DNA of 45,747 nt, taken from the NCBI GenBank assembly GCA_014763725.1, contig JACXUX010000001.1:1-45747 (forward strand), written 5' to 3'. The notes beneath the pieces were generated by a model, which saw only the letters and a list, made by a program, of their open reading frames with translations, searched no databases and was not told the origin of the DNA. Of this stretch, positions 23,026 through 41,702 are shown piece by piece. This DNA comes from Rhodobacterales bacterium (GTDB lineage Bacteria > Pseudomonadota > Alphaproteobacteria > Rhodobacterales > Rhodobacteraceae). The translations under genes were made by a program, and so were the position numbers. Every line of letters begins with the position of its first letter. The stretch's first letter is position 1.

Positions 23026-23241
23026 TCTGACGATCAGGCTGGGCCGGGGGTGACCCCGGTCCAGCCGAACCCGTCTTGGCAGGGCCTTTCGCGCAAAGGA
23101 TCTTCCAGGACCGGTTCGGGTTCGGGCGCCCGCCGACGGGACGGCGGACAGGAATGGAACCCGGGACTTCCTGTTTCAGATGCCAGGCGGACCGTGGCCC
23201 GACGGTGCCCGCCCGGCCGGAAACGAAAGGTGACGACACAC

Positions 23242-27375
<4,134 letters not shown>

Positions 27376-27379
27376 CGCG

Positions 27380-28138
27380 ATGGAACCATCGCGCGCGTTC
27401 CTCTTCGTCGGCGGCAATGCCCGCAGCGGGACCACCGCCCTGGTGGCCCTGCTGAACTGCCACAGGGACGTGTTCCTGATGGTGGAACGGTATCTGACCG
27501 AGTTCCTGAAGGGCCAGCTGACGGCCGCGCATTACGCGCGCGACCGGATCCTGGCCGACAGCCGGGGCCTGCCGCATCTGGCCGAGGGCGAGGACATGGC
27601 CGCGCGGTTCGACCGCGCGCGGCTGATGGGCGACAAGTTTCCCGCCCTGTCGGCCGGGTTCGACCTGCTGGACGCCCAGTTTCCGGGCGCGCGGCTGGTC
27701 TATATCGTCCGCAACCCGTTTTCGGTGGTGGAAAGCTATCAGGCGCGCTTCGACGAAGGGTCGTGGAAGCGCGACGCCCGCCGCGGCATCCAGCAGTGGA
27801 ACGACAGCATGCGCCTGGGCCTGGCCCGGGTGCAGGCCGGCCAGCCGCTGATCGTGGTCCGCTACGAAACCCTGTTCCGGTCCGAGCCCGAGATGCTGGC
27901 GCTGTTCGCAGCCCTGGGGCTGGACCCTGCGGGCGTCGACATGGACCGGCTGCGGTTCCTGTCGGCCAAGGCGCAGGATCTGGCCGAGACCGCGGTGCCC
28001 CGGAACGAGGATCTGCGGATGCTGGTTTCGGACGAGGCCGATTTCGGCGCCTATCGGGCGCTGCTGCGGACCCAGGGCCTGCGGGCCAAGGACGATACGA
28101 AGACCCGGCCCGCGTCGCGGACCGTGGCGGCAGTCTGA
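27380..28138 (+). CDS. Sulfotransferase-fold (PAPS-dependent type) protein encoded between rpoB and rpoC
   Basis: 252 aa from MEPSRAFLFVGG. ATG at 27380 lies 4 nt after the rpoB TGA (27373-27375), with GAGGA at 27367-27371. The alternative ATG at 27365 overlaps rpoB. 5'-PSB-like P-loop FVGGNARSGTTAL, 3'-PB-like RLVYIVRNPFSVVESY, and C-terminal VRYETLFRSEPEMLALFAALGLDP. The stop lies 18 nt before the rpoC ATG. Confidence 0.7.
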   Translation: MEPSRAFLFVGGNARSGTTALVALLNCHRDVFLMVERYLTEFLKGQLTAAHYARDRILADSRGLPHLAEGEDMAARFDRARLMGDKFPALSAGFDLLDAQFPGARLVYIVRNPFSVVESYQARFDEGSWKRDARRGIQQWNDSMRLGLARVQAGQPLIVVRYETLFRSEPEMLALFAALGLDPAGVDMDRLRFLSAKAQDLAETAVPRNEDLRMLVSDEADFGAYRALLRTQGLRAKDDTKTRPASRTVAAV

Positions 28139-28156
28139 CATTCATCGGGTGAACAC

Positions 28157-32398
<4,242 letters not shown>

Positions 32399-32420
32399 CC
32401 CGGCCTGCCTGACCCCCGGC

Positions 32421-32451
32421 CCCCGCGGCACCGCCGCGGGGGCTTTCTTTT
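32421..32451 (+). terminator. Rho-independent terminator of the rpoBC transcript
   Basis: CCCCGCGGC-ACC-GCCGCGGGG (32421-32441) followed by CTTTCTTTTG, 23 nt after the rpoC stop. Confidence 0.75.
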
Positions 32452-32539
32452 GCGCGCCCGCTGGTCTTGGCCCCGCCGCGGCGCTAGCCAGCGCCGGATT
32501 GGGGCCCCGGGCGGGGCCGCACCGGGGTGCGACGGCAAG

Positions 32540-33412
32540 ATGGCGGCAAGCGACAATCTGCGCGCGGCGGGGCTGATGACGCTGGGCATGGCGGGGTTCG
32601 CGCTGTCGGATGCCTGCATGAAGCTGGTCTCGGCCCTTCTGCCGCTGGATCAGGCCATCGCGCTGCGCGGGGTGCTGACGGTGGCCGCGCTGGGGGCGCT
32701 GGCCGCCTGGCAGGGCAGCTGGCGTGCGCGCCTGCCGCGGCGCGACTGGGCGCGGATCGGGCTGCGCACCCTGGCCGAGGTGGCCGCCGCCTGGCTGTTT
32801 CTGGCCGCGCTGTTCCGCATGCCGCTGGCCAATGTCTCGGCCATCCTGCAGGCGCTGCCGCTGACGGTGTCGCTGGGGGCGGCGCTGTTCCTGGCCGAGT
32901 CGATGGGCTGGCGGCGGCTGACCGCGATCGCGGTGGGGTTCGTGGGCGTGCTGATGATCGTCCAGCCCGGGACGGACGGGTTCACCGTCTGGTCGTTGCT
33001 GGCGGTGGGGTCGGTCCTGACGGTGGCGGTGCGCGATCTGGCCACGCGGCGGATGTCGGCCGCGGTGCCCTCGGGGCTGGTGGCGCTGTGCGCGGCCTGC
33101 GGGGTGACGGGATCGGCTTTGCTGGTGGGGTTGCGCGGCGGCTGGGTTGACCCGCCCCCTGTGGCCTGGGGCGCGCTGGCGGTGTCGGCCGCGGCGGTGG
33201 TGACGGGCTATCTGATGGTCATCGGCGCCATGCGCTGGGGCGAGGTGTCGTCGGTCGCGCCCTTCCGCTATACCGGGCTGATCTGGTCGCTGCTGCTGGG
33301 GCTGACGCTGTTCGGCAGCTGGCCCGATCGGCTGACGCTTGCCGGTTCGGCGGTGGTCATCGCATCCGGGCTTTACACGCTGTGGCGCGAAACGCGAAGA
33401 CGAAGGGAATGA
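32540..33412 (+). CDS. DMT superfamily (EamA-like) transporter
   Basis: 290 aa from MAASDNLRAAGLMTLGMAGFALSDACMKLV (ATG at 32540), with ten predicted hydrophobic segments. The track ORF start at 32450 lies inside the rpoC terminator region. Confidence 0.7.
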   Translation: MAASDNLRAAGLMTLGMAGFALSDACMKLVSALLPLDQAIALRGVLTVAALGALAAWQGSWRARLPRRDWARIGLRTLAEVAAAWLFLAALFRMPLANVSAILQALPLTVSLGAALFLAESMGWRRLTAIAVGFVGVLMIVQPGTDGFTVWSLLAVGSVLTVAVRDLATRRMSAAVPSGLVALCAACGVTGSALLVGLRGGWVDPPPVAWGALAVSAAAVVTGYLMVIGAMRWGEVSSVAPFRYTGLIWSLLLGLTLFGSWPDRLTLAGSAVVIASGLYTLWRETRRRRE

Positions 33413-33468
33413 CCGGTGCCCGACCGCCCTGTCACGAAACCATCATTTCCGCGTCCTAGACAGGCGCG

Positions 33469-34230
33469 ATGCCCCGAGGGGGCCCGAGGTATGCCGTGCC
33501 GCCCTGCCACTTGAGCATCGTGATCCCGGTCCGGAACGAGGCCGACAACCTGCCCGCCCTGCTGGACGAGATCGACGCGGCCCTGGCCGCCCAAGCCCCC
33601 TATGAGGTGATCGTCGTCGACGACGGCTCGACCGATGCCACCGCGGCGGTGCTGGCCGCGCGGGCGGCCACGGCCCCGCATCTGCGCGTGCTGCGCCACC
33701 CCCGGTCGGGCGGGCAGAGTGCCGCGATCCATTCGGGGGTGCTGGCCGCGCGGGCCGATGTGGTGGCCACGCTGGACGGCGACGGCCAGAACCCGCCCGC
33801 CGACCTGCCGCGGCTTGTCGCGCCCCTGCTGGGCGGCCCGCCCGGGCTGGGGCTGGTCGCGGGCCAGCGGGTCGGGCGCAAGGACACGCTGTCGAAACGC
33901 CTGGCCAGCCGGGCGGCCAATGCGATCCGCAGCTGGGCGCTGGCCGACGGAACGCGCGACACAGGCTGCGGGCTCAAGGCGTTCCGCCGCGACGCCTTTC
34001 TGCGGCTGCCCTATTTCGACCACATGCACCGCTATCTGCCCGCGCTGTTCGCCCGCGACGGCTGGCAGATCCGCCTGGTCGACGTGGGCCATCGGCCGCG
34101 CGGGGCAGGGCGGTCGAACTATACCAACCTGCAGCGCGCGCTGGTGGGCGCGGTGGATCTGCTGGGCGTGATGTGGCTGATCCGGCGGCGCAAGAAGGCG
34201 CAGCCGGCCGCGACAGGAGAGAGTGAATGA
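33469..34230 (+). CDS. Family 2 glycosyltransferase, polyprenol-phosphate glycosyltransferase type (ArnC/GtrB/DPM1-like)
   Basis: 253 aa. LSIVIPVRNEADNLPALLDEI, VIVVDDGSTDAT, DGDGQNPP (DXD region) and a C-terminal TM segment VGAVDLLGVMWLIRRR. Confidence 0.8.
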   Translation: MPRGGPRYAVPPCHLSIVIPVRNEADNLPALLDEIDAALAAQAPYEVIVVDDGSTDATAAVLAARAATAPHLRVLRHPRSGGQSAAIHSGVLAARADVVATLDGDGQNPPADLPRLVAPLLGGPPGLGLVAGQRVGRKDTLSKRLASRAANAIRSWALADGTRDTGCGLKAFRRDAFLRLPYFDHMHRYLPALFARDGWQIRLVDVGHRPRGAGRSNYTNLQRALVGAVDLLGVMWLIRRRKKAQPAATGESE

Positions 34231-34538
34231 TCGAGGCGCTGATGTCCTTCTTTCACGCCGGTTCGCCTGCCGAGCTGGCCTGGATCGGGTTCGGCCTGTT
34301 CGGGCAGCTGATGTTTTCCGGCCGGTTCATCGTGCAGTGGATCGCGTCCGAAAAGGCGCGCGCCTCGGTCATCCCGCTGGCGTTCTGGTATTTCTCGATG
34401 GGCGGGGGCGTCGTGCTGCTGTCCTATGCGATCTACCGGATGGATCCGGTGTTCATCATGGGCCAGTCGCTGGGCGTGGTGATCTATTCGCGCAATCTGT
34501 GGCTGATCCATGCCAACCGCCGCGAAGCCCGGGGTTGA
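34227..34538 (+). CDS. Lipid-A-disaccharide synthase N-terminal (LAB_N) domain membrane protein
   Basis: 103 aa with an ATGA overlap onto the GT2 stop. GQLMFSGRFIVQWIASEKARASVIPLAFWYFSMGGGVVLLSYAIYRMDPVFIMGQSLGVVIYSRN matches the LAB_N pattern. Confidence 0.7.
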   Translation: MIEALMSFFHAGSPAELAWIGFGLFGQLMFSGRFIVQWIASEKARASVIPLAFWYFSMGGGVVLLSYAIYRMDPVFIMGQSLGVVIYSRNLWLIHANRREARG

Positions 34539-35952
34539 GGCCTGGCTGCCCCCGGCGCTGGCCATCGTCGCCGCGGTGACCGCGGCGCGGCTGGCGCTGC
34601 TGGCGGTCAACGGCACCGACCTGTTCGTGGACGAGGCGCAGTACTGGCTTTGGGGTCAGAGCTTTGCCTGGGGCTATTACTCCAAGCCGCCGATGATCGG
34701 CTGGGTGATCGGGCTGTCGACGGCGCTGGGGGGCGACGGGACCTTCTGGGTGCGGGCGCCCTTCCCGCTGTTCCAGGGGGCGGCGGCGCTGGTGCTGGCG
34801 GCGCTGGCGGCGCAGGTGGCGGGGGCGCGGGCTGCGGTCTGGACGGCGGCGGCCTATGTCACGCTGCCCATGGCAGCGGTGGGCAGCCTGCTGGCCTCGA
34901 CCGACAGCGTGATGGCGCCGTTCTTCGCCGTGGCCATCCTGGCGCATCTGCGGCTGTGCGAGACGCGCGCGCCGGGGTGGGCGGTGGCGGCCGGTGTGGC
35001 CACGGGGCTGGCCATCCTGTCGAAATATGCCGGGGCCTATCTGGTGCTGGGCTATGCGCTGGCCGCGATCTGGCCAGACCGGCGGCCGGGCTGGCGCAAT
35101 GCGGCGCTGCTGGCGCTGGCCTGTGCGGTGCTGGTGGCGCCGAATCTGTGGTGGAACCTGCAGAACGGGCTGGCCACGCTGCAGCACACGGCCGACAACG
35201 TGGGCTGGGTGCGGCAAGGTGCGCAACAGGGGCTGAACCCCGCCGGCCTGGCGGAATTCGTGGGGGCGCAGTTCGGCGTGATGGGGCCGGGGCTGTTCGC
35301 GGCCTGGCTGGTGGCGCTGGCGCGGGGGCGGCGGACGCCGCCTGCGCTGCGGCGGCTGCTGCCGTTCAGCCTGCCGGCCTTCGTCATCGTCTGCGGCCAG
35401 GCCCTGGCCGAGCGGGCCTATGCCAACTGGGCGGCCAGCGCGTGGCTCGCGGGCACGGTGGTGGCGGTGGGGGTGCTGCTGGCGCGGCCGCGGCTGCTGG
35501 CGCTGGCGGTGGGGGTGAATGCCGCGGTGGCGCTGGCGCTGCCGGTTCTGACGGTCTTTCCGGGCCTTGCGGTGAACGGCACGCCGGTGCTGGAACGCTA
35601 TCTGGGCCGCCGGGACCTGAGCCTGCAGATCCTGGACGCAGCCCGCGCCACGGGGCAGGGCGTGATCGTGGCCGACAAGCGCGACGTGCTGGCCGACCTG
35701 TTCCACACCGGGCGCGACAGCGGGCTTTCGATCCACGCCCGCCCGCCGACGGGCCGGCCGATGAACCATTACGAACAGGCCCATCCGCTGCCGGCGGGGC
35801 AGGGGGGCACGGTGCTGCTGGTGACGGCCCAGCCGCCGGTCTGCGACGGCGCGCCCGTGGCCCCCGCCGTGCGGTTCGACACCGCGGGGGGCACCTATCG
35901 CCGGCAGGCCTTTGCCGGCTATGTCATTGCGGCCAACTGTCTGGCGCGCTGA
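34510..35952 (+). CDS. GT-C fold glycosyltransferase, ArnT/PMT_2-like (GT39/GT83)
   Basis: 480 aa, overlapping the preceding gene by 29 nt. N-terminal FVDEAQYWLWGQSFAWGYYSKPPMIGWVIG is followed by many TM segments and a soluble C-terminal domain. Confidence 0.75.
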   Translation: MPTAAKPGVEAWLPPALAIVAAVTAARLALLAVNGTDLFVDEAQYWLWGQSFAWGYYSKPPMIGWVIGLSTALGGDGTFWVRAPFPLFQGAAALVLAALAAQVAGARAAVWTAAAYVTLPMAAVGSLLASTDSVMAPFFAVAILAHLRLCETRAPGWAVAAGVATGLAILSKYAGAYLVLGYALAAIWPDRRPGWRNAALLALACAVLVAPNLWWNLQNGLATLQHTADNVGWVRQGAQQGLNPAGLAEFVGAQFGVMGPGLFAAWLVALARGRRTPPALRRLLPFSLPAFVIVCGQALAERAYANWAASAWLAGTVVAVGVLLARPRLLALAVGVNAAVALALPVLTVFPGLAVNGTPVLERYLGRRDLSLQILDAARATGQGVIVADKRDVLADLFHTGRDSGLSIHARPPTGRPMNHYEQAHPLPAGQGGTVLLVTAQPPVCDGAPVAPAVRFDTAGGTYRRQAFAGYVIAANCLAR

Positions 35953-41626: not shown

Positions 41627-41702
41627 AGGGGTATAGCTCAGTTGGTAGAGCGACGGTCTCCAAAACCGTAGGTCGCGGGTTCGAGCCCTGCTGCCCCTGC
41701 CA
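41627..41702 (+). tRNA. trnW: tRNA-Trp (anticodon CCA)
   Basis: 76-nt cloverleaf folded by hand. Acceptor AGGGGTA/TGCCCCT, D arm GCTC/GAGC, anticodon stem ACGGT/ACCGT with loop CTCCAAA (CCA), T arm GCGGG-TTCGAGC-CCTGC, discriminator G, encoded CCA. Confidence 0.9.

Follow-up and report, generated by a model that had tools for sequence, protein, structure and literature searches.

A Sulfotransferase-family Gene between rpoB and rpoC of a Rhodobacterales Bacterium Belongs to a Family That Recurs at This Junction

The described enzymes that most closely resemble the sulfotransferase (ST) analyzed here are the protein-tyrosine sulfotransferases TPST1 and TPST2 (PDB codes 5wri, 3ap1, and others), followed by the CurM and olefin-synthase (OLS) sulfotransferases (PDB codes 4gbm and 4gox), which are domains of polyketide synthases acting on ACP-bound β-hydroxyacyl chains. 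Within the Alphaproteobacteria, NodH and NoeE carry out cytoplasmic, PAPS-dependent O-sulfation of a glycan or glycolipid, the class that the proposed enzyme resembles, and Sinorhizobium meliloti LpsS provides a case of envelope-glycan sulfation, the functional class favored below. Nod-factor chemistry pairs sulfation with acetylation, and the adjacency of rpoB and rpoC is among the most conserved of bacterial gene pairs. NodH has been reported in the same Pfam family as the ST, PF13469 (PMC11625862), whereas LpsS is annotated as a member of a different sulfotransferase family, Stf0 (PMC12445080). Nothing relevant was found in the literature on a gene, sulfotransferase or other, located between rpoB and rpoC.

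The DNA stretch analyzed (the window, 45,747 nucleotides of a Rhodobacterales bacterium) carries the ST gene in exactly this position, with its start codon 4 nt past the rpoB stop and its own stop 18 nt ahead of the rpoC start (Table 1). Re-reading of the sequence returned the same positions as the original prediction for the rpoB TGA, the GAGGA element, both ends of the ORF, and the rpoC ATG. The true start of rpoB is the ATG at 23242 rather than the GTG at 23050 given in a mechanical list of ORFs; the same list places an upstream in-frame ATG of the ST ORF at 27365 (257 aa), but the start at 27380 is preferred because it is supported by the alignment of homologs. The leader motif upstream of rpoB marks the 5′ leader of the ST-bearing transcription unit, and the hairpin following rpoC, the first strong terminator-like site downstream of rpoB, closes the rpoB-ST-rpoC unit. 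A consensus scan revealed no promoter-like or terminator-like sites between rpoB and rpoC, in agreement with the earlier reading that hairpins, T-tracts, and promoter-like hexamers are absent there. The ST gene is thus on the same strand as its neighbors, tightly joined to both, and separated from neither by a terminator or promoter. As had been proposed, it is probably co-transcribed and translationally coupled with rpoB and rpoC, judging from the 4- and 18-nt gaps, the placement of the terminator, and the tight junctions of its relatives. Within the ST-rpoC spacer, CATCGGGTGA(A/G)CACATG is also present in one of the relatives (L041).

Table 1. Features of the rpoB-ST-rpoC transcription unit and of the genes that follow it
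Feature	Position	Strand	Remarks
Rhodo-rpoB RNA leader motif (RF03074)	23119..23213	+	Rfam 60.8 bits, gathering score 33.6; upstream of rpoB
rpoB (RNA polymerase β)	23242..27375	+	Stop TGA 27373-27375
GAGGA Shine-Dalgarno of the ST gene (putative)	27367..27371	+	Within the final rpoB codons; 8 nt before ATG 27380; read from the sequence
ST gene, 252 aa, Sulfotransfer_3, TPST/CurM-like	27380..28138	+	ATG 27380, TGA 28136-28138
18-nt spacer with rpoC ribosome-binding site (GGGTGA)	28139..28156	+	
rpoC (RNA polymerase β′)	28157..32398	+	ATG 28157
Intrinsic terminator-like hairpin	32418..32444	+	12 pairs, 11 of them G-C, then a T-run
EamA transporter	32450-33412	+	
GT2	33469-34230	+	
PMT_2/GT-C	34510-35952	+	

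The ST ORF is a true gene. Its GC content at the three codon positions (0.72/0.46/0.90) matches that of rpoB and rpoC, whereas the overlapping ORFs in other frames do not, which rules out a chance high-GC ORF or an alternative-frame reading; the value of 0.90 at the third position, equal to that of the host genes, also bears out the host-like codon usage and GC originally noted. Comparison with the homolog at 94% identity (L053) gave a dN/dS of 0.275. Only short, chance repeats flank the gene, where neither a mobile-element signature nor an integrase was found.

By profile, predicted fold, and residues, the gene product is a PAPS-dependent sulfotransferase. The 252-residue translation, which contains FVGGNARSGTTAL, RLVYIVRNPFSVVESY, and VVRYETLFRSEPEMLALFAALGL, matched Pfam Sulfotransfer_3 (PF13469) with 64.6 bits against a cut-off of 27 (E = 2e-17) over profile positions 2-212 of 216, and at E values up to 10 the only further Pfam match was a sub-threshold one to PF00685, with the Stf0 domain unmatched. 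A profile search of the PDB returned TPST1/2 (E = 4e-13 to 6e-11) and the CurM/OLS sulfotransferases (5e-6 and 3e-5). The AF2 model (pLDDT 87.6, pTM 0.85) is predicted to adopt the sulfotransferase α/β fold, with TPST2, TPST1, and CurM as its top Foldseek matches; among the best 50 PDB matches there were 45 sulfotransferases and five nucleotide kinases, and the top 34 were all sulfotransferases. The profile search and the structure prediction had both been called for by the original prediction, and its assignment of a sulfotransferase fold with both PAPS-binding elements agrees with their outcome and with the residues retained.

All PAPS-binding and catalytic residues are present. The 5′-PSB comprises Gly11-Thr19 (GGNARSGTT), a P-loop-like xxRSGTT following strand 1, in which Gly12, Arg15, Gly17, and Thr18 are invariant across 37 relatives. 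The 3′-PB is formed by Arg111, Ser119, and Arg123, aligned to the TPST segment VRDGRASVHSMISR; these three residues are likewise invariant across the 37 relatives, as are the predicted catalytic Glu36 and Lys86. Glu36/Arg37 align to the ‘GEEtR’ and Lys86 to the ‘NKDP’ of TPST1. As strand 1 begins at residue 6, with the P-loop following from residue 11, an N-terminal transmembrane segment or membrane anchor cannot fit. The C-terminal tails of the family vary in length and charge, and no common property was found among them.

The ST shares with the TPSTs a PRSGTT-type 5′-PSB loop, the Glu-x-Arg, the Lys of the ‘xDKxP’ motif, the Arg/Ser/Arg of the 3′-PB, and a WN motif; Glu36/Arg37 correspond to E99/R101 in TPST2 numbering. 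Nevertheless, sequence identity is only 19-23% and the TM-score about 0.5, the ST is shorter and differs in its C-terminal helical region, and it has neither the membrane anchor nor the luminal localization of the animal enzymes. Unlike TPST-type systems, its relatives associate genomically with glycan enzymes and not with peptide precursors. The fold and Sulfotransfer_3-type motifs are also those of CurM and OLS, although the window enzyme is free-standing. Its original classification as LpsS/NodH-type is not supported: the curated NoeE model gave 26.4 bits against a cut-off of 500, nod genes are absent from its surroundings, LpsS carries the Stf0 annotation given above, and the nearest solved structures are protein-tyrosine sulfotransferases. 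A tblastn search of 72,556 plasmids returned only two matches, in Methylomagnum (uninformative neighborhood) and Nonomuraea (weak), with none in rhizobial records.

The gene had been taken for a one-off passenger. Instead, of 22 distinct close relatives (34-94% identity), 19 share its location between the two polymerase genes, and these come from Rhodobacterales (Jannaschia aquimarina, Tropicimonas isoalkanivorans, and Rhodovulum), Acuticoccus, and marine metagenomes, compared with none among ∼60 distant relatives. The family was thus found at about 17 distinct rpoB-rpoC junctions, and its relatives fill this slot in some twenty marine alphaproteobacterial lineages. From these genomic positions, the clade appears almost always to occupy the rpoB-rpoC junction in marine Rhodobacterales and Acuticoccus. 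In many lineages the junctions are tight and non-polar, the rpoB-to-ST gap being -4 to +7 nt at 11 of 15 measurable junctions and the ST-to-rpoC gap -4 to +19 nt at 8 of 16; where the latter spacer reaches 80-90 nt, its alignment is conserved within close pairs only. Some carriers hold extra cargo at the junction, namely tandem ST copies, a sugar-acetyltransferase-like gene, or small ORFs of 73 and 63 aa beside the ST. The small ORFs are not conserved clade-wide, the 63-aa one resembles a degenerate duplicate of the start of rpoC, and the window’s junction has no such partner. A pattern scan of 185,579 GTDB species representatives found a handful of carriers, patchily distributed among Rhodobacterales, and this prevalence is a lower bound, as the scan missed J. 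aquimarina. J. aquimarina and T. isoalkanivorans are carriers available in culture.

Divergence among the ST alleles far exceeds that among their hosts, and the two are out of step. Relative to the window, rpoC dS is 0.147 and ST identity 94% for L053, as compared with 0.394 and 44% for L049; the Acuticoccus-like ST, from a host with 79% rpoC identity, is as near to the window ST as is that of the near relative L049. Over all pairs, ST identity correlates only weakly with rpoC identity (rho 0.27, p = 0.11), and the tandem copies found at two junctions are only about 32% identical to one another. Deep nodes of an NJ tree of the family have bootstrap values below 65, and the tree therefore cannot separate an ancestral tandem pair with differential loss from horizontal allele exchange. 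Nested in the rpoBC clade is one copy from outside rpoBC (L001), which indicates that the gene can move. A search for recombination tracts gave no clear gradient of sliding-window divergence in the 5′ part of rpoC with distance from the junction, and the comparison of rpoB 3′ ends was out of register as a result of tail indels.

Two of the three close relatives outside rpoBC lie in glycosyltransferase/methyltransferase clusters, in the order giant GT1, ST, FkbM methyltransferase in L013 and GT4, FkbM/SAM methyltransferase, ST in L055, and each has 32 of 34 signature positions in common with the rpoBC-embedded STs. In the wider family, fusions occur to GT1, to GT61 plus a methyltransferase, and to an ABC-transporter ATPase. 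An additional hexapeptide protein, sugar-O-acetyltransferase-like, is encoded at the TARA junction; its best matches are sugar acetyltransferases, with weak ones to Vat/CatB-type antibiotic acetyltransferases, and the junction combines genes of sulfotransferase and acetyltransferase-like type, much as sulfation and acetylation go together in Nod-factor chemistry. No glycan-synthesis gene lies inside the window’s rpoB-ST-rpoC unit. The EamA-GT2-PMT_2 module (32450..35952, + strand), located between the rpoC terminator and rpsL, is the glycosylation module that had been noted after rpoC and is possibly linked in theme to the ST.

The reading that we favor, to which we give about an even chance, is that of a cytoplasmic PAPS-dependent glycan O-sulfotransferase that is a fixed member of the rpoBC operon and for which the location is a tolerated harbor. 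The soluble enzyme would bind PAPS through the 5′-PSB and 3′-PB, with Glu36 acting as general base on the acceptor hydroxyl, aided by Arg15 and Lys86, and PAP being released. Its gene would be transcribed by read-through from the rpoB leader, with rpoC re-initiating after the 18-nt spacer, so that ST synthesis would be tied to that of the RNA polymerase core. The acceptor would most likely be a carbohydrate, either a cell-envelope glycan or a lipid-linked precursor at the cytoplasmic face. This preference follows from the GT/FkbM clusters of the two relatives outside rpoBC and the fusions of distant members to glycan enzymes, together with the shared residue signature, and it preserves the envelope/glycan part of the original proposal, although not its LpsS/NodH-type filing. 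Counting against a glycan acceptor, the closest solved structures are those of protein-tyrosine and not carbohydrate enzymes. The rpoB-rpoC slot could serve as a hard-to-delete “safe harbor”, whose ultra-conserved flanks would permit allele exchange by homologous recombination, in which case no role in transcription is needed to explain the location. The slot resembles, in behavior only, the gtrABC/oac serotype-converting cassettes and the variable polysaccharide loci between conserved core genes, with which it has in common small decoration genes (sulfate, acetyl), a fixed position, divergent alleles, varying cargo, and allele-host incongruence; unlike gtrABC/oac, it lacks a phage or integrase and lies inside an essential operon with co-oriented and probably translationally coupled genes. 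A safe harbor leaves unexplained why this family in particular fills the junction in two orders, a specificity that may indicate that the ST is functionally tied to RNA polymerase.

Such a tie would be expected were the ST a TPST/RaxST-like enzyme for protein or peptide tyrosines, acting on RNA polymerase, a transcription factor, or a protein made with the polymerase. The rank of TPST1/2 as best matches by sequence and structure, the alignment of Glu36-Arg37 and Lys86 with the TPST catalytic residues, the common WN motif, the fidelity of the clade to the junction, and the small ORFs beside some STs would all fit. We consider it quite unlikely, given the low identity to TPSTs, a catalytic Glu region that also aligns with the CurM family, which are not protein enzymes, and relatives and fusions that accompany glycosyltransferases; furthermore, the rpoB tail shows no obvious acidic tyrosine motif, a small ORF partner is missing from the window, and the 63-aa ORF looks like a decayed rpoC start instead of a substrate. 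There is a slim chance that the junction is a dedicated slot for a fast-diversifying ST with a transcription-tied target, be it the polymerase, a protein binding it, or a toxin or antibiotic directed at it, the diversity of its alleles being the outcome of an arms race. When the sulfotransferases, the acetyltransferase-like protein, and the small ORFs were scanned against PADLOC-DB, the only match was a marginal one of the 73-aa ORF to PbeC (E = 0.009).

Were the substrate instead a small molecule (metabolite, signal, or xenobiotic, as in the inactivation of an antibiotic that targets RNA polymerase), growth-coupled, constitutive rpoBC expression would be of advantage. Sulfotransfer_3 and related enzymes include CurM, OLS, and Teg12/14, which are present among the fold matches, the hexapeptide protein has its weak Vat/CatB-type matches, and highly divergent alleles would suit arms-race targets. 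This reading is nonetheless unlikely, as no resistance-family model was matched above its cut-off, PADLOC gave no match for the sulfotransferases or the acetyltransferase, the hexapeptide protein is closest to sugar acetyltransferases, and relatives elsewhere sit in a glycan-synthesis context. Least probable by far, and largely refuted, is the view that the gene entered recently by horizontal insertion as a passenger, or is a remnant in decay, and serves no selected function in this genome. A patchy distribution and the mobility shown by L001 would agree with it, but the host-like GC3, the lack of flanking repeats and integrase, the intact ORF, the invariance of catalytic residues among relatives at 30-45% identity, the dN/dS of 0.275, and the tight non-polar junctions in many lineages all argue against it.

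What is new here is the comparative result, the recurrence of an ST family in the rpoB-rpoC slot, which makes the gene more interesting than a singleton. That a non-transcription enzyme family is present at this junction, repeatedly or persistently, in no fewer than two orders of Alphaproteobacteria makes for a surprising exception. If the harbor reading is true, it would show accessory genes exploiting ultra-conserved essential flanks as an undeletable, recombination-accessible site. Alternatively, the location may point to a new sulfation reaction coupled to RNA polymerase synthesis and, if the enzyme is indeed tied to transcription, it would provide the first case of a sulfation system built into the operon of RNA polymerase.

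Genomic locations were determined for every close relative of the sulfotransferase (ST) reachable through the protein database, GTDB species representatives and JGI metagenomes, with rpoB and rpoC located by tblastn or by reading contig ends. The protein is rare, with 11 matches among 5.8 billion clustered proteins in a first search. Nineteen of 22 distinct sulfotransferases, no pair of which is >70 % identical, were found between rpoB and rpoC, at 17 distinct junctions, whereas none of ~60 more distant relatives (≤32 % identity) adjoins either gene. Carriers outside Rhodobacterales are L015, an Acuticoccus MAG, and L005/6, an Acuticoccus-like contig of 5 Mb whose rpoB is only 71 % identical to that of the window. 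The distance from the rpoB stop to the ST start is −4 to +7 nt at 11 of 15 measurable junctions, and that from the ST stop to the rpoC start is −4 to +19 nt at eight of 16 junctions and 81–91 nt at five others.

In the window, the coordinates of rpoB, ST and rpoC and the position of GAGGA in the original prediction were borne out by reading of the sequence, and the 252-residue translation contains FVGGNARSGTTAL, RLVYIVRNPFSVVESY and VVRYETLFRSEPEMLALFAALGL. An upstream in-frame ATG at 27365, taken from a mechanical ORF list and overlapping the last rpoB codons, was rejected as the start, since the homolog alignment places it at 27380. Because long ORFs are frequent in all frames of this ~66 % GC DNA, the reading frame was checked by codon-position GC, which is 0.72/0.46/0.90 for the + frame of ST and 0.67/0.40/0.90 for rpoB, with a like pattern in rpoC; this gene-like pattern is absent from ORFs overlapping ST in other frames. 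The GC3 of 0.90 resembles that of neighboring genes and, with the match to rpoB and rpoC, upholds the host-like codon usage and GC proposed for ST. Likewise, a consensus scan revealed no promoter-like or terminator-like sites between rpoB and rpoC, in agreement with the earlier reading of no hairpin, T-tract or promoter hexamers beside ST, and a repeat search found no flanking repeats. The mechanical rpoB start, GTG 23050, was ruled out, as the Rhodo-rpoB leader RNA falls inside that ORF, and the real start is therefore ATG 23242; the host belongs to the Rhodobacterales. At the sequence level, the rpoB-ST-rpoC unit is uninterrupted and closed by a predicted strong terminator. Between ST and its 94 % identical homolog on L053 there are 14 non-synonymous and 18 synonymous differences, with a dN/dS of 0.275 compared with 0.07 for rpoC; dN/dS and GC3 indicate a functional, long-resident gene.

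Features of the window and of loci carrying ST relatives (L handles)
Feature	Location	Strand	Basis or remark
Rhodo-rpoB leader RNA motif, RF03074	23119-23213	+	Rfam, 60.8 bits; inside mechanical rpoB ORF
GAGGA	27367-27371	+	Sequence reading; embedded in rpoB tail
rpoB stop, TGA	27373-27375	+	Sequence reading
ST ORF	27380-28138	+	Sequence reading; ATG 27380, TGA 28136-28138
rpoC ATG	28157	+	Sequence reading
Terminator-like 12-pair hairpin and T-run	32418-32444		Consensus scan; directly after rpoC
EamA transporter, GT2, PMT_2/GT-C	32450-35952	+	Between rpoC terminator and rpsL
tRNA-Trp	41627-41702	+	Single gene, seemingly ordinary
73-aa coiled-coil ORF	L005 7779-8000; L015 5773-5994		Between rpoB and ST
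Multigene junction	L007 2770-3815		TARA
Tandem ST copies	L042 97-1607; L047 48-1546
Longer rpoB-to-ST spacers	L041 16-175; L054 617-700		Strong hairpins
861-aa protein	L001 8750-11335	-	Beside non-rpoBC ST copy
rpoC-rpsL slot in relatives	L091 13223-14774; L092 7257-9171; L011 11703-12566
Junction carriers	Window lineage, L053, L048
Junction carrier	L041		rpoC start clear; just four rpoB-tail codons visible
Junction carriers	L007-L010		TARA Oceans contigs
Junction carriers	L042/43, L047		Two tandem ST copies each
Junction carriers	L044-46, L049, L050-52, L054
Junction carriers	L011, L014		GTDB MAGs
Junction carrier	L012		Tropicimonas isoalkanivorans DSM 19548
Junction carrier	L016		Rhodovulum MAG
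Junction carrier	L091		Jannaschia aquimarina
Junction carrier	L092		MAG GCA_029976255.1

Over its first 392 codons, rpoC of the window shows a synonymous divergence of 0.147 from that of L053 and of 0.394 from that of the window's close relative L049; the corresponding ST identities are 94 and 44 %. At the L053 rate, an L049 ortholog would be expected to retain nearly 90 % identity. The ST of the Acuticoccus-like contig (host rpoC, 79 %) is 45 % identical to that of the window, as similar as the L049 protein, and across the set the correlation between ST and rpoC identities is weak (rho 0.27, p 0.11). A neighbor-joining tree, which is weak at depth and does not separate sorting from exchange, placed the window, L053, L041, L007, L042a, L047a, L044, L049, J. 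aquimarina and L001 in one group (type A, 63 % bootstrap), and recovered several further groups; the second members of the tandem pairs belong to another group than type A. Because ST divergence is out of step with that of the hosts, the junction slot holds old, divergent alleles or paralogs that lineages have either sorted or exchanged. L001, one of three copies outside rpoBC, is nested beside L042a and L047a with 100 % support and so appears to have escaped from the junction. On L001, a gene for a protein of 861 residues, which matches nothing in Pfam or NCBIfam, is convergent with the ST copy and overlaps it by 4 nt; a GH32 gene and a sugar ABC transporter lie alongside.

Some junctions carry extra cargo. 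The tandem STs fill the rpoB-rpoC interval with overlapping stop/start codons, yet are ~32 % identical to each other and fall in different family subgroups. Acuticoccus-type junctions include a conserved coiled-coil ORF for which no family match was found. The TARA junction has the order rpoB, ST, 63-aa ORF, 285-aa hexapeptide gene, rpoC, and the hexapeptide protein has its best, though weak, matches among NeuD/PglB-, WbbJ- and WcaF-type sugar O-acetyltransferases. The 63-aa ORF holds what seems to be a degenerate second copy of the rpoC start (MNQELAENQFVP versus MNQELTNNPFNP, 14/15 nt), suggestive of a scar left by an insertion. Of the two spacer hairpins, that of L041 has a perfect 9-bp stem (CCGGTTTCC/GGAAACCGG) and that of L054 is followed after 8 nt by a T6 run; both could be attenuators or processing sites.

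The sulfotransferase fold and both PAPS-binding elements predicted for ST were supported by profile and structural comparisons. ST matches Pfam Sulfotransfer_3 at 64.6 bits (cut-off 27), with Sulfotransfer_1 below threshold, and the sole NCBIfam match is a local one to NoeE (26 bits against a cut-off of 500). Against PDB sequences, the family profile ranks human and tick protein-tyrosine sulfotransferases (TPSTs) first (E 4e-13 to 6e-11), followed by the CurM and olefin-synthase sulfotransferase domains (3e-5 and 5e-6). Foldseek with a confident AlphaFold2 model (pLDDT 87.6, pTM 0.85) gave TPST2, TPST1 and CurM first, with other sulfotransferases after. In HMM alignments, Arg15-Ser16-Gly17-Thr18-Thr19 align with the TPST 5'-PSB, Glu36/Arg37 with the GEEtR segment, Lys86 with the lysine of NKDP, and Arg111/Ser119/Arg123 with the 3'-PB. 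By the numbering of the TPST2 structure, the GEEtR segment contains the TPST catalytic Glu. Gly12, Arg15, Gly17, Thr18, Glu36, Gly84, Lys86, Arg111, Pro113, Val116, Ser119, Arg123 and Trp140 are invariant across 37 relatives (31–64 % identical to ST). Judged from these residues, ST carries a complete PAPS-sulfotransferase apparatus. With its P-loop starting at residue 11, the enzyme lacks both a signal peptide and a membrane anchor and is therefore cytoplasmic. Within a known fold, ST forms a new subfamily; database annotation is generic (e.g. "sulfotransferase family protein" in J. aquimarina).

The proposed LpsS/NodH-type assignment was not supported. Sinorhizobium meliloti LpsS is annotated as Stf0-family, a different family (PMC12445080), and although NodH is reported within PF13469 (PMC11625862), tblastn of ST against 72,556 plasmids matched only Methylomagnum and Nonomuraea records. 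A carbohydrate acceptor is favored on circumstantial grounds. Two non-rpoBC copies lie in glycan contexts, L013 after a 1199-aa GT1-family protein and before an FkbM methyltransferase, and L055 after a GT4 and an FkbM/SAM methyltransferase. Of the 34 signature positions of the family, each has 32 in common with the enzymes embedded in rpoBC, including, outside the PAPS motifs, Arg37, Arg76, Asp85, Trp129, Trp140, Asn141, Ser143, Tyr162, Glu163, Phe166, Arg208 and Tyr225. An exhaustive profile search yielded 361 cluster representatives at E <1e-30; among ten multi-domain representatives scanned, one is fused to GT1, one to GT61 and a methyltransferase, one to an ABC-transporter ATPase and four (P0060, P0072, P0075 and P0091) to the uncharacterized domain DUF6473, with no partner domain detected in three. 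These contexts, fusions and shared positions, together with the TARA pairing of ST with a sugar-acetyltransferase-like protein, point to glycan decoration as the most likely function, and a polysaccharide or a lipid-linked oligosaccharide handled at the cytoplasmic face could serve as the acceptor. Alternatively, ST may be a TPST-like protein sulfotransferase, a reading that draws on TPSTs being its closest matches of solved structure and on the family's unexplained adherence to the RNA polymerase operon.

Upstream of rpoB in the window are nusG, rplK, rplA, rplJ and rplL. The anticipated glycosylation module after rpoC was found as the EamA, GT2 and PMT_2/GT-C genes, beyond which lie rpsL, rpsG and fusA; as a lead, this trio is reminiscent of the ArnC/ArnT/ArnEF or Gtr type of periplasmic glycan-decoration system, which has three components. 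Relatives have an EamA gene with different glycosyltransferases (Rhamno_transf, GT92-like) in this interval, pointing to a second variable slot for glycan genes; therefore, both gaps beside rpoC host variable glycan-related genes in this group. Elsewhere, the window is unremarkable chromosomal DNA (Mrp antiporter, aldehyde dehydrogenase, DeoC, UDG, adenine deaminase and RND efflux).

Transcription would enter ST from the rpoB leader, and ribosomes ending rpoB would re-initiate at ATG 27380 via the GAGGA, so that ST would be made in step with β and β'; rpoC would initiate at its own GGGTGA site, 18 nt past the ST stop. The enzyme would then move sulfate from PAPS to a hydroxyl of the glycan acceptor, with Glu36 as the base. 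The tight coupling at the junction may arise because an insertion there would survive solely when non-polar, and it would not be removable by imprecise deletion. The DNA flank at the rpoC 5' end is 77–93 % identical across genera, in principle sufficient for homologous exchange, which would explain divergent ST alleles in related hosts. This account of a non-polar, undeletable and exchangeable site does not account for ownership of the slot by a single family, and a transcription-linked reading is consequently retained as a less likely alternative. Full-text searches turned up no paper on a sulfotransferase, or any conserved gene, between rpoB and rpoC, and the conserved embedding of ST in an RNA polymerase operon, along with its allele turnover, seems not to have been described. 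The embedding itself is a robust observation, and a surprising one for specialists in genome organization and transcription.
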